A stretch of DNA of 64,000 nucleotides from a virus. Each line of letters starts with the position of its first letter. The stretch's first letter is position 1. The notes under the pieces are model-generated. The model made no database searches, was not told the DNA's origin, and saw only the letters and a program-made list of their open reading frames with translations. The stretch is from IMG/VR virus record IMGVR_UViG_3300001765_000052; one strand, 5' to 3'. Of the stretch, positions 22,884 through 64,000 are shown one piece after another. The position numbers and the translations under genes are program-made.

Positions 22884-22903
22884 ACCATATATTACTAATT
22901 TGG
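22884..22903 (+). promoter_or_regulatory. Early promoter of chimallin
   Basis: catatattactaatttgg containing TATATTAC at 22888-22895. Confidence 0.75.
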
Positions 22904-22971: not shown

Positions 22972-24858
22972 ATGGCTATCAATGATCCGTCTAACAATTA
23001 TGTACAACCAATTGTGCAAAATATGCAAAATACTAATCAAAACACTACACAAAATAATAATCAATCAGCACCTGTCCAAACACGGTCAATGTCTTTTTTA
23101 AGAATGGGGACTGTAGGTGGGTTGTCGCGTACACCTACTGCTGAGATTCTACTTAAAGCTATGAACGCTTTAAACGAAGAAGCTAAGCGAATCGTAGAAA
23201 ATCCATGGGAAGTTTCATTGCTCCCTATGGATAATGCCAAGGAAACCAACTTGGCATTCAGTGGTATTATTATTGCTGTTCGTAGAACCGATGCAGTTAA
23301 ATCTGTAGGCGTTTGCTATCATACACTTATCTTGGAAGGTTCTGGGGAACCTCTAACGCCACGCATAGAACATTACGATGGACAACAGATTGAAGTAATT
23401 CGGGCAACTGGTGATGCATTCGATGAGATTTATAAAAAATGTGTACATGACGCGGTTACAAAAGCTTTTCCAGGTGTCATTTGTAATGTGCAGCATACAC
23501 AAGTAGTTCCACGGCATTTTGATTTTGAAAATAAAGATGCTGTACATACATTATTATTAAATGCACAATTACCGTGCTACACGTATCTCGAAACAAGGTC
23601 AGCAGGGTTTACAGATATGAACTTGACTTTGTTTGAACGTGATTCAACATTAGCAGTAAGGATTGGTTTTAACGAACCACAGAAAACAGATTACGCTGGA
23701 CTTCCTGTACGCAACGACATCAATATCACATTGAGCGCTAACTCTAATAATAGGAATAACCAACTATCAGCTGTAAATACACAAGAGCGTAGTGTCAGTA
23801 TTGCAAGCACAGGTGGATACATTGATCCAATCTGGGCTCCGCCTAATAATAATCCTTATAATACAGCGCCTCAACCAAAATTTGCGGCCAGATTCGTTAT
23901 TACAAACATGGAGAATGTAACACAAACAACTGCTGCATCTCAATTACTTGCACTGGTATCAAGTTTGATCCTTAATGAAAACGACAATTGGTACCCATAT
24001 TTTCTACCGCGACCACAAACTGTCAACAGTAAAAGTGGTGTTGATTTACGTGACATTGGTGCAATTAATATCGAAGGTAATTTCCGTAATAACACTGACG
24101 GTTACGATGTATTCGTTGATACCAAAGCTGCTTCATTTACACCGAAGGAACTGTGGCATCTAATTAAATGTACATTTATTCCAGGTATCCATTTCTCACT
24201 TCGTGTTAGCGAATGCGGTGCGGACACATGGTATAATGCACCATTCTTAGCAGCGGCAATGAACGATAAGAATGCTATTGCTTCTATTTTACATGGTGCT
24301 AATGTTTTAACTGGTCAAGTGTTTGGTCAATTCTACGGGACAAATGAATCACCAGTGTTAATTAATAATGAACGTGTGCATCTGGGATATTATACGGGTA
24401 GCGACGGTACGAAACGTGACATCGCTGACATCGATTATCTTGCTGTTATGAATAAGGCAGGTAAAACAGATCCACGTGTTGGTGCAAGATGGACTAATTC
24501 ATTCTTACGAGCATCATTAGAACCATCTTCAATTAACATGTGCCTAGCCGACCGTAAAAAGATGATCGAAGATGTCGTGGGTACAGATGTTACATATACT
24601 GGATTTGCAAGAATTGTTACATTTACAAATAGATTTACTAAAGCACTATCAGATGCTTGTATTCAGGTTGGGTTGGATATTCGTACTATCAATTCCAATA
24701 TGAATGGTACACAGTACATGCAACGTTCAAGCGCTAATTTTGTGAATCAAGTTCAAATGAATCCTAATTCTTCTGGGATTTTTAACCAAGGTTATAATAA
24801 CCAGTTTAATGGATACCAACCACCAAACATTTACCAAGGGGTAAATTCCTGGATGTAA
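22972..24858 (+). CDS. chmA: Chimallin, nuclear shell protein (phiKZ gp54-like)
   Basis: 628 aa, immediately upstream of the nvRNAP beta' gene, early promoter and strong RBS; LRDIGAINIE, HLGYY and RDIADIDYLA motifs. Confidence 0.8.
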   Translation: MAINDPSNNYVQPIVQNMQNTNQNTTQNNNQSAPVQTRSMSFLRMGTVGGLSRTPTAEILLKAMNALNEEAKRIVENPWEVSLLPMDNAKETNLAFSGIIIAVRRTDAVKSVGVCYHTLILEGSGEPLTPRIEHYDGQQIEVIRATGDAFDEIYKKCVHDAVTKAFPGVICNVQHTQVVPRHFDFENKDAVHTLLLNAQLPCYTYLETRSAGFTDMNLTLFERDSTLAVRIGFNEPQKTDYAGLPVRNDINITLSANSNNRNNQLSAVNTQERSVSIASTGGYIDPIWAPPNNNPYNTAPQPKFAARFVITNMENVTQTTAASQLLALVSSLILNENDNWYPYFLPRPQTVNSKSGVDLRDIGAINIEGNFRNNTDGYDVFVDTKAASFTPKELWHLIKCTFIPGIHFSLRVSECGADTWYNAPFLAAAMNDKNAIASILHGANVLTGQVFGQFYGTNESPVLINNERVHLGYYTGSDGTKRDIADIDYLAVMNKAGKTDPRVGARWTNSFLRASLEPSSINMCLADRKKMIEDVVGTDVTYTGFARIVTFTNRFTKALSDACIQVGLDIRTINSNMNGTQYMQRSSANFVNQVQMNPNSSGIFNQGYNNQFNGYQPPNIYQGVNSWM

Positions 24859-26179: not shown

Positions 26180-27607
26180 TAACGTATAATTAAAACCTTG
26201 AACACATATGTTATGAATAATAAACATAGGTGTTACATGAATAATAGAGTATATAAAACTGATATAAAAGAATGTGAAGAAAAACTAGGTTTTTATTATT
26301 TAAATGAAAATTTAATAATAAATAAAAACTCTGACATATTTGATTTAAATTCAAACGAATTTTGTATTCAAAAAGAAAATGCAATAGGGTATAAGCTTTT
26401 TAATAACAAGTTAGTTCATATTTTAATGTGTGAAACGTTTTTAGTTAAACCCGAATCTGATCATATAGGTAAAGTGTTTGTAAATCACATTAATGGAATT
26501 AAAAATCAAAACCAATTAGATAACCTAGAATGGTGCACGCCTCAATATAATTGTAATCATGCGTATGAGAATGATTTAAGAACAGATAACATACGTGTAT
26601 TAGTTAAAGATTTATTAACAAATGAAATCACAGAATATCGCAGTTTATGGGCTTGTGCTAAAGCAATGAATTTAAATGGTTCACATATTTGGCACTGGAT
26701 TCAACCAAAACAATACGGTATTATAAAATTAGATCATTATTTGTTTATAAAAAAAGGTCAAGATTGGCCTATTGTAAATATAAATAATGCTAATGAATAT
26801 AAAAACGGTGATTCTAAAAAAGTTATATTAATCGATGATTTAAATAAAGTGTATTTATTTAAATCAATGTCCTCAATAAAAGATTACATTGATATTAATA
26901 TTGGTACATTTGCAATTATGAAAAGATTGAGAACAGCTAAAGAAAAAGGATTAGCTTATTGCACAATTGATAATTATAAATTAATGTATTTAAATGATTA
27001 TAAAGATTATAAGTTAGAAAATACGATAACTTTACCACAAAAAAGATTTCGTGGTAATACCGTATCCCCTAGAAAGCAATATAAATTAAATGTTACTGAT
27101 TTAAATACAGGTAATATAAGAATTGTTGAATCTAGCGATACTCTAGCTAAAGAACTTAATATCAGTAGACGTACCTTAATGAATAGAATCTTCCATAAAA
27201 AAGGAAGAATAAATAATTATTATATCGAATACATTCGTTAGTTTTATATACTCTGTTAAAAAAGGAAATAATTATACAAGGCTACTATGTTAGTAATGAC
27301 ATATGTAAAATCCATTGAATTGCTGGGATAACTTGTTAAACTCATTAACTACTACTAATCGAAAGGTGAAGCGAATGTTTGAAAATAATGAGGTAGAGTC
27401 AATCAGCAGCTAAGATCCTAAGGTAGTAAAATCACATATTACTACTATGGATAAAGTTCAACGACTATCCCGTAAGGGAGTAGGGGTTAGTAATCCCGAA
27501 GCAGTGGACCCCTAGTAATAGGGTGAAGATATAGTCTGTTCTATATGGAGACGTATAGCAGGTGTCATAACACACCGGGTTAGATTAACGACCTAACTGG
27601 ACAAAAG
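26180..27607 (+). mobile_element. Group I intron 1 in beta' with an HNH gene in the P1 loop
   Basis: Exon ends in U; gtataat (26184) pairs with attatac, followed by aaggc (27271-27282) giving the U.G splice pair; core motifs aattgctggga, aatcagcagc, gttcaacgacta, aagatatagtct; terminal G. Confidence 0.88.
26198..27241 (+). CDS. Intron-encoded HNH homing endonuclease
   Basis: VNHINGIKNQNQLDNLEWCTPQYNCNHA; C-terminal NUMOD1-like helix-turn-helix units. Confidence 0.88.
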   Translation: MNTYVMNNKHRCYMNNRVYKTDIKECEEKLGFYYLNENLIINKNSDIFDLNSNEFCIQKENAIGYKLFNNKLVHILMCETFLVKPESDHIGKVFVNHINGIKNQNQLDNLEWCTPQYNCNHAYENDLRTDNIRVLVKDLLTNEITEYRSLWACAKAMNLNGSHIWHWIQPKQYGIIKLDHYLFIKKGQDWPIVNINNANEYKNGDSKKVILIDDLNKVYLFKSMSSIKDYIDINIGTFAIMKRLRTAKEKGLAYCTIDNYKLMYLNDYKDYKLENTITLPQKRFRGNTVSPRKQYKLNVTDLNTGNIRIVESSDTLAKELNISRRTLMNRIFHKKGRINNYYIEYIR

Positions 27608-27619
27608 GATTTTGACGGT
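27608..27619 (+). CDS. beta' exon 2: 12-nt micro-exon encoding DFDG
   Basis: gat ttt gac ggt lies between the terminal G of intron 1 and P1 of intron 2; completes NA-DFDG-D. Confidence 0.88.
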
Positions 27620-27935
27620 AAATTTACCTGCCGTGACTAAACTTTCTAATTGCTGGAAACTCTCGTTAGACTAATATACCAAAGCAGATAGCGAAAGCTA
27701 AGATGTGATGAATTCAGGTTTGAAAAATATTAGGTAGAGACAATCAGCCCCTAAGTTCCTCTATGTAGAAATGCAGTGGAAAAAGGCCAACGACTAGAGC
27801 GTAGGCTCGTACACTCAAGTGAGTGGAAACGGAAGTTACTATTAAATATAGTAAAGATATAGTCTGTTCTATATAGAAATATATAGCTGTATTAATTATA
27901 CGGGATAGGATTAACGAACCTATTTGAACACAAAG
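27620..27935 (+). mobile_element. Group I intron 2 in beta', ORF-less, 316 nt
   Basis: P1 acggu/gccgu (27630-27634) with U.G; aattgctggaaactc, aatcagc, caacgactaga, aagatatagtct; ends acacaaag. Confidence 0.88.
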
Positions 27936-39468: not shown

Positions 39469-41332
39469 TTGGCATTTTTATAAATTGATGAATTTAGGTA
39501 TATAGTATGTGTCAATAAATAAAGGACGCATATGAAATGCCTAATTGAAAATACTTACTTCAAAAGTATTCCAGGAAACACAGAATTATTGATTTCGATC
39601 GAGAAGCGGTTTGTGACTTATGATCTCAAACCTTGTGATATTCACATTGATAGTAATGGATTTGTGAATATAGAGATGTTCGGAATAATAAGGAAAGTAG
39701 ATGTTTCTTGGTTAAAACTAATAGCACATTTTGAAGTAAATTTACCTGAAAAATTCCACGAATATACTTTCCGAATTAACTTCATAAACGCAGGCAAAGG
39801 CATGATTAGGGCAACAATTAATTCGACAATGGTATTTTCAAACCCTATATTAATTCAAAATAAATATAGGATAATACCTAATTTTACGGATTACGCAATC
39901 AGTAAAGAATCAGAATTAATTGATGTTCACTTTTATCGTATTGTGCCTAGGTTTAATCGCGGGTCTTTTAATTACCCTGAAGTTTTTATATATTGTCCAG
40001 ATAAGAATTCATACAAACATATTAAAGTTCACAGATTGGTAGCATTGGCTTGGGTTAAAAATAGAGATTTCTTAACCCAACCAATAGTGAATCATATCGA
40101 CGGTAATAAACAAAATAACCATTACTCTAATTTAGAATGGTGTAGTTCGTCACATAACAGTAAGCACGCGTACACATTAGGATCATATGCAATCAACAAA
40201 CCATGTAAGGTAAAAAATCATCTTACAGGGGAAGTATCGCACTTTGTTTCTTTAATGGACGCTAGTAAATTTATTGGACTAAAACACTATCTCAATTCTA
40301 AAATGTTAAAAAAGGGCGCTAAGCCTAGACTTTTAAATAGATACTACGAAGTAAAAGAAATGTCCGACGACGATGTAAATTGGTATTATGATAAACTTAA
40401 GGCAGCATCTTTAGATGAAGCTTTTAGTTTATTGATAAAAAATGATAAAAACGTAGTCGGCATTTTTCATAGTCTAGAAAAAGCAAAAAACTTTTTTAAT
40501 ATGGAGGATAAAAATCTAAATGTTTTTGAATTAATAAATGCAATTGAAAAATTGCATCCAACATATGTAATTAATTACATTGACAATTATTACTTTGAAC
40601 CAATTGAATGTAAAGATTTAGTAACTGGTGATGTATTCTGCGCAGCTACCTGGGTGGACTTACAAACAATGTTAAAAATTAAAACAGATTTGGCTTCTTA
40701 TAATAAATTAATTAAAACTTTTGGACAAATAAAGTATAAGCAATGGTTATTTCGTTATAAATCAGATGCGCCTTGGGATGTTAACGCAAAAGGTGTTGGT
40801 GTTAGAGGAAACAAAATAACGGCTACAAACACAATGAGTGGTGAAGTAGTTGAATTTGATTCTTTAGTAAATGCCGTCGATTACTTTAATGTAGATGTTA
40901 AAACGATTCTAAGAAGACTTAATAATTCGGAAAAGAAGTACAATGGTTGGGTTTTTCAGGGTGAAACAAATAATCAATTTGCAAAAATAAAAAAGCCTCT
41001 GTCCAAAGGACAGAAATATCCCTTAATTGACGGGAAACCCTTTATAGCCTCATGCACCAACTTATCCTAGGAATAGAGATAAGGGCTGAATTAACTACTC
41101 AGATATGGTAAAAGATATGAGGATTAGGCAATCCGCAGCTGAGCTCCCAGAACGGGAGAGAGTTCAACGACTAACCCCTTACCAGGGTGTAGAGCCAAGT
41201 GGCTCGAAACAGGGAAATTCATTATTAATGAATAAGATATAGTCTGGTCTGTATGGTGACATACAGAAGCTTAGTCGCTCGTGAGAGCCGCTGTAGCTGG
41301 GTGGGCTTAACGAACCTACTTGAACACAAACG
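39469..41332 (+). mobile_element. Group I intron in RNAP beta with HNH gene
   Basis: Exon ends in U; ggu|uu pairs with aagcc (40993-40997); aattgacgggaaa, aatccgcagc, gttcaacgacta, aagatatagtct; splicing gives HGG|KGTI. Confidence 0.85.
39532..41070 (+). CDS. Intron-encoded HNH homing endonuclease
   Basis: VHRLVALAW..IVNHIDGNKQNNHYSNLEWC..HN..HA; several NUMOD1-like units. Confidence 0.88.
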   Translation: MKCLIENTYFKSIPGNTELLISIEKRFVTYDLKPCDIHIDSNGFVNIEMFGIIRKVDVSWLKLIAHFEVNLPEKFHEYTFRINFINAGKGMIRATINSTMVFSNPILIQNKYRIIPNFTDYAISKESELIDVHFYRIVPRFNRGSFNYPEVFIYCPDKNSYKHIKVHRLVALAWVKNRDFLTQPIVNHIDGNKQNNHYSNLEWCSSSHNSKHAYTLGSYAINKPCKVKNHLTGEVSHFVSLMDASKFIGLKHYLNSKMLKKGAKPRLLNRYYEVKEMSDDDVNWYYDKLKAASLDEAFSLLIKNDKNVVGIFHSLEKAKNFFNMEDKNLNVFELINAIEKLHPTYVINYIDNYYFEPIECKDLVTGDVFCAATWVDLQTMLKIKTDLASYNKLIKTFGQIKYKQWLFRYKSDAPWDVNAKGVGVRGNKITATNTMSGEVVEFDSLVNAVDYFNVDVKTILRRLNNSEKKYNGWVFQGETNNQFAKIKKPLSKGQKYPLIDGKPFIASCTNLS

Positions 41333-43237: not shown

Positions 43238-45238
43238 ATGTTGACTATTGACGGAAGAAAATTGTTATTGTATACCACTGAAGAATTGTGGGGTAAATTA
43301 CGTGGTAAATTTCATGTAAAATTTGATGATGGTGTTATACTTACTAATTATAAAGAATGTATTTACAGTAGTTACACATGGGACTTTCATAGAAAATATA
43401 TAAACACACCTATGTTATTAAAACATCATGTTAAATATATTATTGGTGACGATTTAGTTAGTAGCGATACACATTTAAAATTAATTGAAAATGTTTTATG
43501 GTCGTGTTTCGATGCATATACAAATATTGAAACAGATAGAGTTGAACTGGTTAATCAATTGGCTAAATTAGCATACGACGTAACCAATCACCTTTACAAT
43601 GAGCTTACCTATAGACTTGAAGAATATGTGACATCTATTGATATTCTGGATTTTCTAGAAGTAACTAATGACCCGCGTGTTAAAAATGTTATTGAGGCAA
43701 TGCAACCAACTCAAGAATCAATTATAAATGTTTATTCTAGTATTAGTAACACTATTAAAGATAAGAATAACTTTATAAATAATTCGCTAGCAAAAGCTGT
43801 TAAATCAAACATTGTTGATATGAATCAAACTCTACAATGTATTGGTCCACGTGGTTTATTGACTGATATCGATTCTAACCAATTTGAAAAACCAATTACT
43901 CGTGGATATGTAAAAGGTATTAGAAGTTTACATGACAGTATGATTCAATCTAGATCAGCTGCAAAATCGATCGCGTTCTCAACAGATACATTACAGAAGA
44001 GTGAATATTTTTCTCGGCGACAACAATTGATTTGTCAAAACGTTAAGAATCTTCATATGGGTGATTGTGGTAGTACAAATTATCTATTATGGACAGTTAG
44101 GGATAATAGATACGATGGTGTTGGTTTAAACAGAGATGGTGATCTTAAAACAATAGCAGGAAAATATTATTTAGATGAAACTAGTAACACATTAAAAATA
44201 GTAAATAAAAATGATGTACATTTAATAGGAAAAACTATTAAATTAAGATCAATAGTAGCTGGATGTATGCATCCAGACCCATACGGTGTATGTGAGGTAT
44301 GTTTTGGAAATATTGCTGAATCAATACCTGCAAAAACTAATTTAGGTCATGCAGCATGTGTATCTATGACTGAGATAATATCTCAAATGGTTTTATCTAT
44401 TAAACATCTAGATAGTAGTGCTGTCATCGAAGGTATCTCATTAAAACCATATGAAAAGAAATATTTAAATGCACCAATAAATGGTAATCTTTATTATTTG
44501 AACGATAGTTTAAAAGGTAAAGATATGCATTTTGAATTTGAGTCGGCTAGTGCGTTAGGTCTTATTGATATTAATTTGGTGGATAATGTTAGAAAACTAA
44601 ATACAACTAGGATATCCGAATTAAGTCATATTGCATTAGTTTTTAATAGCACAACTGGTACAGATATAATACCTATTAAAGTAAGTATAAACAAAAGACT
44701 GGCTAGTATTACACATGAATTACTAGATTATATAAAACATACAGGTTGGTCTATTACTAAAGATAATAAGTACTCTATAGACATGAGTAAATGGGATTTT
44801 AAACTACCTATTTTATCATTACCAATGCAGCATTTTCATATGGGATTACATCAATCAGAAATATCTGATATGCTAGAAGCTACCGTGAAAGATATGACTG
44901 TCAGAGATTGTACAATTGAACCCAGTGCTATGTTGATCAATTTTCATGATTTAGTAAATAGTAGACTATCTATTAATTTAGCAATTTTAGATATTGTAAT
45001 ATATAGTAGTATGGTCGTTTCTGCCACACAAGGGGATTATAGTCTACCTAAGCCGTGGACAACATCTGGATTAGGTGTAATGAGGTTATTACTTAACAAT
45101 AGGAGTGTGGCACCCGTGATGGCTTACGAGAGGCATAAAAATTGCATCATATCTCCTAGTAATTATATCAACACAAATCGTTTTGATCACCCGTTTGATT
45201 CTATTTTAATAGCCGATAAGATTTTTCCAAATCATTAA
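43238..45238 (+). CDS. Non-virion RNAP beta' C-terminal subunit (gp74-like)
   Basis: Q.IGPRG, SRSAAKS bridge helix, SEYFSRR, DCGS, CEVCFG, SQMVLSIKH trigger-loop region. Confidence 0.85.
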   Translation: MLTIDGRKLLLYTTEELWGKLRGKFHVKFDDGVILTNYKECIYSSYTWDFHRKYINTPMLLKHHVKYIIGDDLVSSDTHLKLIENVLWSCFDAYTNIETDRVELVNQLAKLAYDVTNHLYNELTYRLEEYVTSIDILDFLEVTNDPRVKNVIEAMQPTQESIINVYSSISNTIKDKNNFINNSLAKAVKSNIVDMNQTLQCIGPRGLLTDIDSNQFEKPITRGYVKGIRSLHDSMIQSRSAAKSIAFSTDTLQKSEYFSRRQQLICQNVKNLHMGDCGSTNYLLWTVRDNRYDGVGLNRDGDLKTIAGKYYLDETSNTLKIVNKNDVHLIGKTIKLRSIVAGCMHPDPYGVCEVCFGNIAESIPAKTNLGHAACVSMTEIISQMVLSIKHLDSSAVIEGISLKPYEKKYLNAPINGNLYYLNDSLKGKDMHFEFESASALGLIDINLVDNVRKLNTTRISELSHIALVFNSTTGTDIIPIKVSINKRLASITHELLDYIKHTGWSITKDNKYSIDMSKWDFKLPILSLPMQHFHMGLHQSEISDMLEATVKDMTVRDCTIEPSAMLINFHDLVNSRLSINLAILDIVIYSSMVVSATQGDYSLPKPWTTSGLGVMRLLLNNRSVAPVMAYERHKNCIISPSNYINTNRFDHPFDSILIADKIFPNH

Positions 45239-47362: not shown

Positions 47363-47388
47363 TATTCTAGAATTTTTCGGTCATATAT
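47363..47388 (+). promoter_or_regulatory. Early-type promoter, near-identical to 62310-62335
   Basis: tattctagaatttttcggtcatatat, 25/26 identical. Confidence 0.6.
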
Positions 47389-47397
47389 AATTAATGT

Positions 47398-47681
47398 GAA
47401 TATGGGGTAAACCTGAACTATCCTTTGGAAATGAGATGTAACTTTTATCTAAAACTGATTAAAGTGTTTATCAAAACTTCCCTACTGGTCTATCAAGACA
47501 TCCGTATTCTGAATGCTAACTAAAGATCGGGATATCAGTTAGTAAAAATGTTTGCCAGTATTCTAAGCAACATGCTTATAGAAACTGCGCCCCGATATTA
47601 GCCTGAGAAACTTAATACGGGAAAAGACTCTCCTGCAGTACATTCCCCTAAAAAGGAATGTACTGTGGAAGATTTTTTTTT
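47398..47681 (+). ncRNA. Candidate structured small RNA
   Basis: Promoter motif upstream, several hairpins, terminator hairpin plus T-run, no ORF over 30 codons noticed on +. Confidence 0.35.
47631..47681 (+). terminator. Intrinsic terminator
   Basis: cagtacattcc / ggaatgtactg stem followed by T9. Confidence 0.75.
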
Positions 47682-48171
47682 ATTTTTTATTCATTGTATC
47701 TAAAATTTCACTTGTTTTATCATACTCTTTTTGTAACCTATTTGTACAATCTGCCATGATATATGTTGCGATATCGTGAGGTAAATCAAGGTAATCTAAT
47801 AAAGATAAACCATAATGCGAATAGACTTTTCTATCTGCATATAGTTTAATTAATTCATATAGTCTACTTCCATCGCAGATATTTTCTGCGTTATGTAAAG
47901 CTATACTAGATAACGGTCGTTTGAGATTAGGGTCTGAAATACTTTGTTCATATATCTCTTGTGAGATATAATCATGTATACCATTCGAATTCTCATACGC
48001 TTGTTGTAATATAGCTTTACTAGAAACAATATCTGTTTTTTTTACCCCTTCAAGTACTTTAAATAATAAGCAATCTTCTTCAATTTCCAGACCGAAGTCA
48101 GCTTGACTTACATGTACCTCATTTAACGTGCTTCGATCTTTTTCAGGCGTGAAATGAGTAATGTAAAAAAA
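47680..48171 (-). CDS. Start-less reading frame missed by the ORF track; probable -1 frameshift extension of the upstream gene
   Basis: Open ~163 codons (FFYITHFTPEKDRSTLNEVHVSQADFGL...RPLSSIALH...HYGLSLLDYLDLP...MNKK*), first ATG only near the end. Confidence 0.7.
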   Translation of the reverse strand, partial: FFYITHFTPEKDRSTLNEVHVSQADFGLEIEEDCLLFKVLEGVKKTDIVSSKAILQQAYENSNGIHDYISQEIYEQSISDPNLKRPLSSIALHNAENICDGSRLYELIKLYADRKVYSHYGLSLLDYLDLPHDIATYIMADCTNRLQKEYDKTSEILDTMNKK

Positions 48172-59879: not shown

Positions 59880-60191
59880 ATGAAATATCTTTTAATTATT
59901 TTAAGTTGTGTTTTTATGCTTGGATGCGCAACTAAAGAAGTAGTCAAAATACAATATGCTGATAAATATGTTTATGTGGAACCACCAGAAGCATTAATGG
60001 TAAATTGTCAAGTAGATAAACCACCCAGTAAGGAAAAATATTTAGCAGTACCTGTTGAAGAAAGAGAAAGAATGCTGTACGAATATTCAAATATACTATT
60101 GATGAGTCTAGGCATTTGTAATATACAATTTAAAGAACTGCGTGCATGGAATCTTAAACAGAAAAAAATTTATTCGCCGGATAAACCATGA
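59880..60191 (+). CDS. Outer-membrane spanin (Rz1-like) lipoprotein
   Basis: Signal peptide with MLGC lipobox; PP..L...C...PP and LGICN. Confidence 0.75.
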   Translation: MKYLLIILSCVFMLGCATKEVVKIQYADKYVYVEPPEALMVNCQVDKPPSKEKYLAVPVEERERMLYEYSNILLMSLGICNIQFKELRAWNLKQKKIYSPDKP

Positions 60192-61495
60192 ATAAGAAAG
60201 ATTTATTTATAAAAGCGATGAAAGCTAAATGCTACGAACGTTTAGCTTGGAGTATGGCTGCTTTTTGTATCGTTCGAGAAAACGAAGAAGAATACAAGAA
60301 AGAGCCCTACCCTTATAGATTAGTACAAACACCAGTTGGTTTTTTCTTTTGTGATCCAGAATCAGGTAATACTTTAACAAAAATCGATGATTTTGTAGCA
60401 GGTGAACCACTTTATAAACCAAAAGATAGATTAGATATTACACCTGACGATATACCTAACTTAACCCAAAACATAAATACAAGTTATGGTAATTTACTTG
60501 TAAATTGGATTACTTTGGTAAATTCTTTTGGTAAAAAAATACCGTATCAAGAAGGTCTATTTTCTATATCTAAAATAGAAAAGATGATAGTTAATTCTAT
60601 TGAAGCTACACCTGATAATATTGCTGACAAAAAAGATGATGTAGTATATATTGACGAGTATGTAAAATTTGGAAATTCTGTTTTCTTTTTAACTGGGTTT
60701 TCTCAGATATGTATTTGGACTGCAACTGAAAAATCATTAGTACCACCTCCAGGATTAAATGAATATAAAGAAAAATTGTTAGCGGAAAATGCAGGTCAAT
60801 TAAATAAAGCTAGTGTGATTGCAAAAATAGATTCACAATTAATGGATTTTGATAAAGAATATCTTAAAGGCGATCCAGTTAATAATTTTCTGATATCTGG
60901 TAAATCTAGAAGCACTAGAAAAAAACTCTATTTAATGCATGGCGCGGAAGTAGATCCAAATGGAAATGGTATTGATGTTCAATTGATAAAGAATTCATTG
61001 GATGAAGGTTGGGATTTAAATGCATTTCCAGCTATGAATAATTCACTTAGAATGGCTTCATTTAATCGCGGTCAAGAAACTGCACTAGGTGGTGTTGCAG
61101 TAAAATGGTTACTTAGAGCATCTACCAATTTAAATGTAACAGAAGATGACTGTGGTAGTAAAATAGGAAAAGTTTTAACTGTAGATGATAATAATAAAAA
61201 AGACTTAATTGGTTTTAATGTTATTATGAATGAAGGTAGTAAAACAGTTGTGGACGAAGCCGATGCATCTTCTTATCTAGGTAAAAAGATCATGGTGAGA
61301 TCTCCTATGTATTGTAAATTACCGTTAACTGATCTATGTAAGGTTTGCGTAGGTAAACGCTTATCTTTAAATTCAAATGGTTTAAGTACTGCTGTTAGTG
61401 AATATGGCAGTTCATTTTTGTTAATATATTTGAAGGCGGCTCATGGGAGAACACTATCATTAGCTAAAATGGATTATAAAACAGCAATAAATTAA
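60188..61495 (+). CDS. Virion RNAP beta' fragment (gp80-like)
   Basis: NSL.EGW, R..SF.RG.ET..GG, EDDCGS, RSPMYC..LCKVC.G, LKAAHG. Confidence 0.8.
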   Translation: MNKKDLFIKAMKAKCYERLAWSMAAFCIVRENEEEYKKEPYPYRLVQTPVGFFFCDPESGNTLTKIDDFVAGEPLYKPKDRLDITPDDIPNLTQNINTSYGNLLVNWITLVNSFGKKIPYQEGLFSISKIEKMIVNSIEATPDNIADKKDDVVYIDEYVKFGNSVFFLTGFSQICIWTATEKSLVPPPGLNEYKEKLLAENAGQLNKASVIAKIDSQLMDFDKEYLKGDPVNNFLISGKSRSTRKKLYLMHGAEVDPNGNGIDVQLIKNSLDEGWDLNAFPAMNNSLRMASFNRGQETALGGVAVKWLLRASTNLNVTEDDCGSKIGKVLTVDDNNKKDLIGFNVIMNEGSKTVVDEADASSYLGKKIMVRSPMYCKLPLTDLCKVCVGKRLSLNSNGLSTAVSEYGSSFLLIYLKAAHGRTLSLAKMDYKTAIN

Positions 61496-61564
61496 AAATA
61501 GTTCAACATAGTCTGAGTGCTAATTAGCGCTATATCTTTTAATATTAATTTAGGAAATTAAAAA

Positions 61565-62263
61565 ATGTCTCTTCCCAATGAAAAGCCAGTACAAGCTAAA
61601 CCACCCATCATTTTAAAAACAGAACCAACAGCTATTATTGCACCTGTTGTTAATCCTGTACTAGAACCTATTATTGAGCCAACTACATCTGGTACAGTGG
61701 TGGCAAAATCTAATGTACCTGTAGGTACAGTATCTACACAAGAAGAAATAAAAGCAGTTATCGAAGAAAAGAAATTGCACGCTGGTGGTTTAATGTTAAC
61801 TAAAGAAGTTTCTTCTTTAATTGATAGAATAGCCGCCACTAAAAATCAAGTAGCAATTAACAACATCGAAGAAGTTAAAGCATATATGCTAGCTATGGCA
61901 CCTGGTCGCACTATGACTCAAGAAGATGGTAGCCGCAATCAAGTTACTTTCTTTAGAACTATTCGCTCTATTATTGAATTTACTGGTGCAGAATTTCAAT
62001 TGAGTTTTGTAACTTTATTGCGCTTATTCGATGAATTTAAAGATGATGTATTCCATGAACGTTATGTGTTTCGTTTTATGGATCACGTTGCTCTTCCACA
62101 AGAAGAGCGCTGGGCATATGAGCGCATTGTTAACTTACTTAAGATTGCTGCACCTGTTCAAGGTAGAAAAGAAGCTTTACGTCAAGTTAATTTTCAAAAG
62201 ACTTTACAACATTCCTTTAGCGACGAAGGTAGAAGAAAAGTATTATCATTCTTTAATGTTTAA
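61565..62263 (+). CDS. Hypothetical protein
   Basis: 232-aa ORF with RBS; P-rich N-terminus. Confidence 0.55.
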   Translation: MSLPNEKPVQAKPPIILKTEPTAIIAPVVNPVLEPIIEPTTSGTVVAKSNVPVGTVSTQEEIKAVIEEKKLHAGGLMLTKEVSSLIDRIAATKNQVAINNIEEVKAYMLAMAPGRTMTQEDGSRNQVTFFRTIRSIIEFTGAEFQLSFVTLLRLFDEFKDDVFHERYVFRFMDHVALPQEERWAYERIVNLLKIAAPVQGRKEALRQVNFQKTLQHSFSDEGRRKVLSFFNV

Positions 62264-62309
62264 TTAGAATACCTACTATCGTTTTCCTAACTATAGGAAA
62301 ACGATAGTA

Positions 62310-62345
62310 TATTCTAGAATTTTTCAGTCATATATCACTAAATTG
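62310..62345 (+). promoter_or_regulatory. Early-type promoter
   Basis: tattctagaatttttcagtcatatatcacta (TATATCAC variant) directly after hairpin 62274-62309. Confidence 0.6.
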
Positions 62346-62399
62346 AATTAGAAACAGTAATGTCTTACTGTAGGGTTCGTATCTTTGAAAGGATATATC

Positions 62400-62741
62400 A
62401 TGTCGATAGTCAAATTTCTCGCCTCTGCGTTTAGTTTCAATATGCTTACAAGCATGGACGCCACGGTGAAAACCACTGTGTTGAATGCGCAAAGAGCGCG
62501 CGGATATCTTCTTGACTTTCCTGGTTATGTGTCAGCTATTGGACATGCAAGCTCAGTGGGGCTCTTCGGAGCCCTCCTGGGAATGGATGTCACACCTCCA
62601 GAAGGGCGCATGACTGTCAAAGTTGGGGTCGGGGAAGCAATTATTGTTGGGCAATATTCTGGACCCCGGTTAGAAGTGGGAGTAACTACTCTCCCTGAAG
62701 GAGCTACAATTATATGGCTTCTGGTAGAAATTATTGATTGA
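62400..62741 (+). CDS. acrIII-1: DUF1874 (STIV B116-like) protein, AcrIII-1-type cA4 ring nuclease
   Basis: FLASAFSFNML, SAIGH (catalytic His), R, RLEVG match the recalled SIRV1 gp29 pattern LANAFSINML / SIGH / NR / RLEEG; 113 aa. Confidence 0.8.
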   Translation: MSIVKFLASAFSFNMLTSMDATVKTTVLNAQRARGYLLDFPGYVSAIGHASSVGLFGALLGMDVTPPEGRMTVKVGVGEAIIVGQYSGPRLEVGVTTLPEGATIIWLLVEIID

Positions 62742-62762
62742 TTGATCCTTTGGGGTTAATCA

Positions 62763-62790
62763 AAAGAAAACCCTCCGGGTTTTCTTTTTT
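62763..62790 (+). terminator. Intrinsic terminator
   Basis: aagaaaaccc tcc gggttttctt followed by Ts. Confidence 0.7.
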
Positions 62791-62823
62791 GTTTAAATTG
62801 TATGCATTAATTAATAAAACAAT

Positions 62824-63471
62824 ATGAAAATTGGAATATTTACACCTACATATAACAGACCTGATTTCATTCGTAACCTAGTATTACAAATAAATAATCA
62901 GATATTAAAACCTAGTATTTTAGTAATACATCAAAATGGACAGGTCGAAAATTATAAGTGGGTTATTAAAGACATTAAAGCACAATTTGAAATAAAATGG
63001 ATTCATACTAATGTAACACTACCTCAAGACAAATGGTATTCTATTCCATTACAACATTTAGTAAATGTGGATTGTGAGTATTATTTCTGGTGTGATCACG
63101 ATGACATCTATTTTAATGACCATATAGCAGAAGGTATTAGTACCCTTATGTCGGGGTACGATTATACTATAAATAGCCATACTGGTTTATTACTGCTTAA
63201 GAAAGCAGGTTACACTTTTGATCCAAATATGCGATTTAAATCACATGAAGAAAATGGACATTCAAGTTCAATGTGTTTTAATAAAAAGTTTGCAATAGAA
63301 TTACTGAGTGACTTATATAACAATAATAGTAAAATAAATTCAGATGTAGTAGTGAGTCAGATAACAAAGAAAAAATTTAGACATTTATTAAAAAATACAG
63401 ACAAACATCCTACGACTGTTTATGTGTGTCATTCACATACTGTAACGTCTAGTCATTTACTTAAAGAATAA
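62824..63471 (+). CDS. GT2-like (GT-A fold) glycosyltransferase
   Basis: IFTPTYNRP, FWCDHDD (DxD). Confidence 0.8.
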   Translation: MKIGIFTPTYNRPDFIRNLVLQINNQILKPSILVIHQNGQVENYKWVIKDIKAQFEIKWIHTNVTLPQDKWYSIPLQHLVNVDCEYYFWCDHDDIYFNDHIAEGISTLMSGYDYTINSHTGLLLLKKAGYTFDPNMRFKSHEENGHSSSMCFNKKFAIELLSDLYNNNSKINSDVVVSQITKKKFRHLLKNTDKHPTTVYVCHSHTVTSSHLLKE

Positions 63472-63473
63472 AT

Positions 63474-64000
63474 ATGAAAATAGGAGTAATTACACCTACT
63501 AGATGTAGACCACATTTGATTAGACATACTGTTTTACAGATGCAAAATCAATTTATAAAACCAGATGTAATGGCTATACATCAAAATGGATTACTTGATA
63601 ACTACGAGTGGGCAGTATTTGACTTAAAAACGGATTTTGAAATAAAATGGTTACATACTGAAGAGAATATATGTACCAGTAAAGCTTATCAAATACCTTT
63701 AGAATATTTGATAGATCAAGATTGCACTCATTATTTTTGGGTAGACGATGATGATATATATTTCAATACACACATTAAAGAAAGCATCTGTATATTAAAT
63801 GCAGGGTTTGATTTTACAGTTAATAAATACAGCCATTTATTAAAAGTATATTCGCACAAATTTAGTTTATCCAAGTCAGTGGAATTTATTGCACATGGAC
63901 CTGGTGGTCAATGTAGCAGTATGAGTTTTAATAGAAGATTTGCAATAGAGTTATTAAGTGACTTTAAGAAATACGGACATTTAAACAGTATTGCTGATGT
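63474..64000 (+). CDS. Second GT2-like glycosyltransferase, truncated by the window end
   Basis: Translated manually: MKIGVITPTRCRP...IHQNG...FWVDDDD; paralog of the previous gene. Confidence 0.8.
   Translation, partial: MKIGVITPTRCRPHLIRHTVLQMQNQFIKPDVMAIHQNGLLDNYEWAVFDLKTDFEIKWLHTEENICTSKAYQIPLEYLIDQDCTHYFWVDDDDIYFNTHIKESICILNAGFDFTVNKYSHLLKVYSHKFSLSKSVEFIAHGPGGQCSSMSFNRRFAIELLSDFKKYGHLNSIAD

Follow-up and report, generated by a model that had tools for sequence, protein, structure and literature searches.

Cyclic tetra-adenylate (cA4) is the product of the Cas10 cyclase of type III CRISPR systems. Proteins of the AcrIII-1, or DUF1874, family act on this molecule. Bacillus subtilis YddF and SIRV1 gp29 cleave cA4 in vitro, and the DUF1874 protein of phage THSA-485A abrogated cA4-based, but not cA6-based, type III immunity. 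Cleavage of cA4 to A2>P or a block of cA4-dependent immunity has been shown only for these three proteins. The preprint that defined AcrIII-1 identified H47 of SIRV1 gp29 as the absolutely conserved general acid, with a loss of more than 2500-fold in the H47A form, and side-chain contacts to cA4 were assigned to N8, S11, N13, H47, S49, T50, R66, Q81 and R85 (10.1101/778746). Another family member, SIRV2 gp37, had no anti-CRISPR function in the native archaeal virus infection, where a different role was found; the failure was attributed to its late expression (10.1101/2023.01.10.523387).

Nucleus-forming jumbo phages are reached by type III CRISPR via their mRNA (10.1101/2022.06.20.496707). Type III is the one CRISPR class shown to reach these phages, because it senses the mRNA that they export. 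The Serratia type III system that stops jumbo phages uses cA3 and NucC. The early promoters of these phages are AT-rich motifs near -10 that are visible bioinformatically and are read by the virion RNA polymerase (vRNAP), whereas no comparable consensus marks the middle and late ones (PMC7598289). We searched the literature and found no report of a type III counter-measure carried by a nucleus-forming jumbo phage; in full text, no paper linked jumbo or nucleus-forming phages to DUF1874 or to ring nucleases, generic remarks aside.

In this study, we analyzed a DUF1874 gene in an uncultured virus, IMG/VR record IMGVR_UViG_3300001765_000052. The stretch analyzed, 64,000 nucleotides in length, is referred to as the window. 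We employed comparative genomics and structure prediction to examine the gene product, its regulatory surroundings, its distribution and its origin, and we weighed alternative functions for it.

Results

A chimallin-encoding phage

The phage is uncultured and known from metagenomes, and one gene in particular places it:

22972-24858, + strand: chimallin, the phage nuclear shell protein (phrog_4795, E 9e-86; Pfam PF25677, 118.6 bits against a cut-off of 27)

The phage is classed as nucleus-forming because the window encodes chimallin, which bears out the context proposed in the earlier note. The window also carries split multisubunit RNA polymerase (RNAP) genes (phrog_3015, E 5.5e-184, 43238-45238; phrog_2962, E 3e-131, 60188-61495). 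In the RNAP beta' piece, Burkholderia phage FLC9 and Ralstonia phages RP12 and RP31 come closest among cultured phages, with only 42-45% identity. At the nucleotide level, a megablast search with window positions 60000-64000 gave no match among 50,697 deposited phages, and a tRNA gene search on this phage found none.

A near-identical phage, L001, was present in a second metagenome (99.87% identity over 9.9 kb), and its ring-nuclease gene is identical. Three of the five differences between the two adjoin this gene: a 6-nt leader indel and an ATTG repeat unit at the stop codon, both non-coding, and a frameshift in the second of two glycosyltransferase-like paralogues. These tandem paralogues (62824-63471 and 63474-63998, the latter running off the window) resemble family-2 glycosyltransferases, both with weak matches below the cut-off; in L001, a 1-nt indel at window position 63733 cuts the second gene to 92 aa.

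Three group I introns were detected with Rfam (72-83 bits against a gathering score of 50) at window positions 27263-27558, 27572-27886 and 40944-41266. The first two are nearly adjacent, 13 nt apart, and one of the three lies beside an HNH endonuclease ORF (39532-41070).

Organization of the DUF1874 gene

The interval 62310-62790 contains one ORF, located on the + strand and extending from an ATG at 62400 to a stop codon at 62739-62741. Its 113-aa product is designated P0001. The gene and the elements around it are as follows:

62274-62309, + strand: perfect 16-bp terminator-like hairpin (16-nt arms 100% complementary, 4-nt loop) at the 5' edge of the cassette, just 3' of the upstream 232-aa gene
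62310-62348, + strand: promoter-like module composed of the palindrome ATTCTAGAAT, a spacer, the core TCATATATCACTA and then AATTGAAT, recognized by a repeat motif and by conservation in relatives
62389-62393, + strand: Shine-Dalgarno sequence AAGGA, 6 nt 5' of the ATG, read from sequence
62400-62741, + strand: P0001, DUF1874/AcrIII-1-family protein (Pfam, PHROG, phmmer, profile and structure matches)
62762-62795, + strand: intrinsic-terminator-like hairpin with a 12-bp stem and a 3-nt loop (62762-62788), followed by a T run

The only alternative start is a TTG five codons 5' of the ATG. Orthologues start where the ATG at 62400 aligns, and AAAGG also precedes the start codon in the two syntenic phage contigs described below, L004 and L007.

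The GC content of the ORF is 0.478, compared with 0.314 for the window and about 0.27-0.36 for neighboring genes. Its GC3 is 0.407; 876 control pieces of 113 codons from 22 other genes gave 0.188 +/- 0.042 with a maximum of 0.336. The phage's own codon usage predicts a GC of 0.387 and a GC3 of 0.205 for P0001, so the anomaly exceeds the effect of amino acid composition. The earlier note had described a gene visibly richer in GC than its neighbors, with its own ribosome-binding site and terminator, and these features are indeed present.

Family membership and predicted fold

When P0001 was searched against Pfam-A, the match to PF08960 (STIV_B116-like, i.e., DUF1874) reached 19.9 bits (E 8.5e-4) and so fell short of the gathering score, which is 26. 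The protein database, in which assignments are precomputed, lists PF08960.17 for P0001 and for 43 of 43 nearer relatives. P0001 also matched phrog_5063 (E 1e-9), and single-sequence phmmer against PDB sequences recovered SIRV1 gp29 (2x4i and 6scf, the latter being its H47A form), STIV B116 and AFV3-109 with E values of 5e-4 to 0.02. Among 1.8 billion representative sequences, 1325 matched P0001 at E <= 1e-3. A profile built from 64 relatives matched four solved viral proteins, SIRV1 gp29, AFV3-109 and B116 among them, with E values from 9e-17 (SIRV1 gp29) to 2e-14.

Structure prediction gave a similar result. The AF2 model of P0001 had a pLDDT of 95.3 and a pTM of 0.87, and in a Foldseek search of the PDB the top 12 matches were all DUF1874 structures (TM 0.70-0.78). 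The top matches included 6scf (AcrIII-1), 2j85, 2x4i, 2j6b and the Csx1-Crn2 structures 8y7f/8y7g (TM 0.68-0.78, probability 1.0). The best structural match in BFVD was the DUF1874 protein of THSA-485A (TM 0.80/0.88). Taken together, the profile, the fold and the database listing make it virtually certain that P0001 belongs to the AcrIII-1/DUF1874 family, as the earlier note had proposed, with the single Pfam-A score lying under its threshold.

The BFVD search additionally returned weak matches to the AcrIII-1 fold in several 130-165-aa proteins of the cultured Erwinia jumbo phages vB_EamM_Kwan and phiEaH2 (TM 0.5-0.65, 8-17% identity). The Kwan and phiEaH2 genomes had no match to the DUF1874 profile or to phrog_4795. 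We therefore did not count these proteins as family members or these phages as chimallin carriers.

Catalytic and cA4-contact residues

In the phmmer alignment to 2x4i, the nine residues of SIRV1 gp29 that contact cA4 correspond to S9, S12, N14, H49, S51, S52, R70, Q85 and R90 of P0001. H49 aligns with the general acid. Among the other eight positions, six are identical, the change of T50 to S52 is conservative, and the change of N8 to S9 is the sole clear substitution; with H49 counted, eight of the nine positions are thus kept as identical or conservative residues.

In an alignment of 64 relatives, H49, Q85 and R90 never vary and R70 hardly does. This agrees with the earlier description of a 113-aa gene with DUF1874 motifs and the catalytic His of a GH pair. 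When ten proteins were aligned, taken from chimallin-encoding contigs and from the syntenic L004 and L007, S12, H49, R70, Q85 and R90 were also identical throughout. We consider H49 the putative catalytic residue of P0001. At some conserved positions, P0001 is at the same time the most deviant protein of its clade: S replaces N, the residue of at least 90% of relatives, at position 9, S replaces T at position 52, and RLPEG has become RLEVG.

A promoter-like module upstream of the gene

The core TCATATATCACTA differs by one mismatch from a 13-nt motif, TCAyATATTACTA, that is repeated in the window. Allowing 0-1 mismatches, this motif occurs at 8 sites, compared with 0.9 expected and a maximum of 3 in 20 dinucleotide-preserving shuffles. 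All 8 sites share the + strand, and most are located 45-75 nt 5' of start codons, including that of chimallin, ahead of which this class-1 promoter motif is found at 22885. The exceptions are one site within a group I intron (the copy at 27432, inside the first of the two nearly adjacent introns) and two within an ORF.

The module ahead of the P0001 gene forms a distinct sub-class, in which the palindrome ATTCTAGAAT is added to the class-1 motif. The extended module, i.e., ATTCTAGAAT and the core, is conserved in related phages: it lies ahead of DUF1874 in both L004 and L007, and in L006 it precedes a different small gene. It occurs a second time in the window:

47363-47401, + strand: second copy of the promoter-like module, ahead of an ORF-less unit ending in a terminator

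The P0001 gene therefore carries a regulatory module that is conserved and that resembles the presumed early promoter, as a sub-class of its own. The early-type promoter of the earlier note is plausible: a one-mismatch variant of a conserved upstream motif is present, but it belongs to the sub-class with the added palindrome, and its early timing is only presumed.

The ORF-less unit that follows the second copy is about 290 nt long (window 47363-47700) and closes with a strong terminator hairpin of 14 bp. Its predicted folding surpasses that of shuffled sequences (z -4.15), and a search against Rfam gave no family above threshold. We regard this unit as a candidate phage non-coding RNA.

Distribution among chimallin-encoding phages

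IMG/VR scans with the RNAP beta' piece or with P0001 alone found no relatives; the 64-sequence alignment was the only query that reached this database, and it identified 115 contigs encoding relatives. Of 19 large DUF1874-carrying records tested, 7 also encode chimallin (L012, L014, L021, L035, L048, L057 and L090). Their DUF1874 proteins are 32-45% identical to P0001 (tblastn) and conserve the H, R, Q and R residues. The genes flanking the window's copy had no match within 10 kb of DUF1874 in the first six of these contigs. In L090 (GCA_028687755.1, JAQTZL010000009.1; 87.7 kb), which derives from a 'Candidatus Nanopelagicales' MAG, chimallin lies 7 kb from DUF1874; the contig is apparently that of a jumbo phage placed in a bacterial bin.

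The chimallin-contig proteins included in a tree of 90 DUF1874 proteins were scattered. This tree, based on 120 columns, is poorly resolved, and its well-supported branches force at least two origins. P0001 is nearest to the L004 and L007 proteins by path and identity, although the tree does not prove them sisters.

The opposite search started from chimallin. We sampled 22 chimallin-bearing IMG/VR records with a three-sequence chimallin alignment (a six-sequence alignment was too divergent to scan with), and DUF1874 was present in 2 of them, and in 1 of the 7 that are at least 90% complete. In tblastn searches with three queries against the 50,697 deposited phages, DUF1874 was found in no chimallivirus; 306 of these records match the jumbo-phage RNAP beta' piece. 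The DUF1874 profile likewise had no match in FLC9 and RP12, even at E <= 1. The gene is thus dispensable for the nucleus-forming lifestyle, given its presence in 2 of 22 records and the lack of a match in deposited chimalliviruses.

The earlier note had suggested that the pairing of such a gene with a phage nucleus is undescribed. We likewise found no paper that describes chimallin together with DUF1874, but the window is not unique in this regard, since seven other chimallin-encoding contigs carry the gene. What we report is a known enzyme family in a chimallin-phage setting for which no describing paper was found.

Origin and allelic variation of the locus

The best two homologues of P0001 among the 1.8 billion representatives, P0002 (54% identity) and P0003 (55%), are encoded by the low-GC phage contigs L004 and L007. 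The window, L004 and L007 share a gene order, which comprises a LysC-like gene, the RNAP beta' piece, a 249-aa protein, small ORFs and DUF1874; L004 adds a muramidase. The flanking proteins of L004 are 63%, 55% and 55% identical to those of the window. Because its own identity of 54-55% compares with 55-63% for the flanks, the ring nuclease has diverged in step with its neighbors. Synteny around the RNAP gene is not conserved with the cultured phages FLC9 and RP12, so these give no empty-site comparison.

L004 and L007 are near-identical to each other, with flanks that are 97-98.5% identical and a dS of 0.05-0.09 in flanking genes. Their DUF1874 ORFs, in contrast, differ with a dS of 1.06 and a dN of 0.10. 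The corresponding dN/dS of about 0.09 indicates that the two alleles are under purifying selection. Identity between the ORFs is 60-78% in the first three quarters and then 100% from the conserved C-terminal motif on, for about 300 nt. Since identity jumps from 60-78% to 100% within the ORF while the flanks stay at 97-98.5%, we interpret this mosaic as an allele replaced through recombination. The locus behaves as a swappable cassette, in that near-identical sister phages have very different alleles.

Directly 3' of DUF1874, both contigs have about 450 nt without an ORF (L004, 8337-8783; L007, 6288-6741), and the first ~290 nt of this stretch are 100% identical between them. We considered this stretch as a homologue of the ORF-less unit at window positions 47400-47690 and rejected it, as the alignment showed no convincing similarity.

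The GC excess is also not confined to the window. The DUF1874 orthologues of L004 and L007 have a GC of 0.46-0.47 and GC3 values of 0.37 and 0.45, against about 0.30 for their flanks. We surveyed 28 non-redundant viral loci whose flanks have a GC below 0.45; in 26 of them, DUF1874 was GC-richer than its flanks (mean +0.08). Within the window, chimallin has a GC3 of 0.279 where 0.197 is expected, the highest among the 22 reference genes, a hint that codon bias may follow expression in this AT-rich phage. A high expression level is expected for chimallin, and selection on codons for expression could thus account for the GC excess.

These data bear on the age of the locus. The earlier note took the gene as a recently acquired cassette; on this reading, it would be a one-off foreign import into this particular phage that could be dated by its high GC. 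Its codon usage is indeed strongly atypical, with a GC3 of 0.407 against a predicted 0.205 and above 876 of 876 control pieces; the gene has its own promoter and terminator; and its distribution is sporadic, with carriers scattered in the tree. However, orthologues occupy the same locus in L004 and L007, they have diverged from P0001 as much as the flanks have, and they show the same GC3 excess. With an excess that is family-wide and with codon selection as an alternative, high GC provides no date for a recent import. We therefore give recent import little probability. Probably, this phage clade has long carried the gene as an accessory cassette that undergoes recombination.

Discussion

Proposed function of P0001 and alternatives

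We favor, as the probable function of P0001, that of an active AcrIII-1 ring nuclease that acts in the cytoplasm and blunts host type III CRISPR signaling; the enzyme activity, early expression and host target are features that we infer. The separate transcription unit would supply P0001 in the cytoplasm, where the protein would form the homodimer of the family, bind cA4 at the dimer interface and cut it to linear di-adenylate with H49 as the general acid. The cA4 would be the second messenger that a host type III complex makes on recognizing phage mRNA exported from the chimallin shell. Its removal by P0001 would keep cA4-dependent effectors, such as Csx1, Csm6 and Can-type nucleases, switched off. 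The parts of this proposal differ in strength. P0001 likely has cA4 nuclease activity, and it is somewhat more likely than not to play a real anti-type III role in infection. Shell and ring nuclease together would then provide two-layer protection. P0001 would be of no help against cA3/NucC systems of the Serratia type or against cA6 systems, because AcrIII-1 is specific for cA4. The promoter sub-class matters as well, because SIRV2 gp37, which failed as an anti-CRISPR protein, is expressed late.

An alternative is that the ring-nuclease fold was kept while the main role is something other than anti-CRISPR, either inhibition of a host protein, as for SIRV2 gp37 with a lysine methyltransferase, or nucleic acid binding, as first proposed for B116 and AFV3-109. 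The study in the native system, which saw no Acr activity of SIRV2 gp37 and a second function, is in line with such a role, as are the annotation of several deposited homologues as 'DNA binding protein' and the unusual substitutions in P0001 at N9 and in the RLPEG loop. We nevertheless consider this role unlikely, as the catalytic and main cA4-contact residues are all kept in the ten proteins from chimallin-encoding contigs and syntenic relatives, the methyltransferase partner is restricted to Crenarchaeota, and the bacterial members YddF and the THSA-485A protein are active on cA4 or against cA4 immunity. P0001 could also be an active cA4 nuclease aimed elsewhere, at stand-alone CARF/SAVED effectors or co-infecting elements, or could serve as a Crn2-like regulator of a phage-borne system. 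Members of this family do serve as the cellular regulator Crn2, Csx1-Crn2 fusions included, fused forms of 511 and 523 aa occur among the relatives, and the portion of the phage genome that was read is the window. Against this possibility, which we regard as quite improbable, cA4 is known as a Cas10 product, and no CRISPR or CARF gene adjoins DUF1874 in the window, L001, L004 or L007. The function that best fits these data is thus the degradation of cA4 made by a host type III system.

Significance

The recurrence of an intact AcrIII-1-type gene in several uncultured chimallin lineages, set against its lack of a match in deposited chimalliviruses, suggests that type III signaling truly exerts selection on these phages in nature, and P0001 is a directly testable candidate counter-measure. 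Since jumbo phages are often presented as CRISPR-resistant, this has a bearing on phage-therapy thinking.

In our view, cassette swapping is the most interesting addition beyond a known enzyme in a fitting setting. We tentatively propose that natural nucleus-forming phages may be under type III CRISPR pressure and may answer it with swappable single-gene ring-nuclease cassettes, in which a conserved promoter module would lie at the 5' side, the highly conserved C-terminal coding motif would serve as the 3' recombination site, and phages would exchange alleles without moving the flanks.

Comparison with known systems

Among deposited phages, the closest homologue of P0001 is the DUF1874 protein of the Thermoanaerobacterium phage THSA-485A (Tsac_2833; 35% identity over nearly the full length, E 2e-14). 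Both proteins are small, stand-alone members of DUF1874 from tailed bacteriophages. They share the NAFS, GHA, NR/GR and QxxGxRL motifs, and P0001 differs in having S for N at position 9 and RLEVG for RLPEG. THSA-485A itself is a 42-kb temperate-type phage of a thermophilic Firmicute and not a chimallin-encoding jumbo phage.

SIRV1 gp29 (6SCF, 2X4I) and STIV B116 (2J85) resemble P0001 in fold (TM 0.70-0.78) and in the catalytic His, but they are archaeal virus proteins with 21-26% identity to P0001 and another loop after the conserved Arg. Crn2 and Csx1-Crn2 of Marinitoga (8Y6Z, 8Y7F, 8Y7G) have the same DUF1874 domain and the same chemistry, which for P0001 is a prediction. Crn2 is a cellular, CRISPR-linked regulator that is often fused to Csx1, whereas P0001 is viral, stand-alone and without CRISPR neighbors. 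The closest parallels in setting are the seven other contigs, L012 to L090, that, like the window, pair chimallin with an intact DUF1874 gene.
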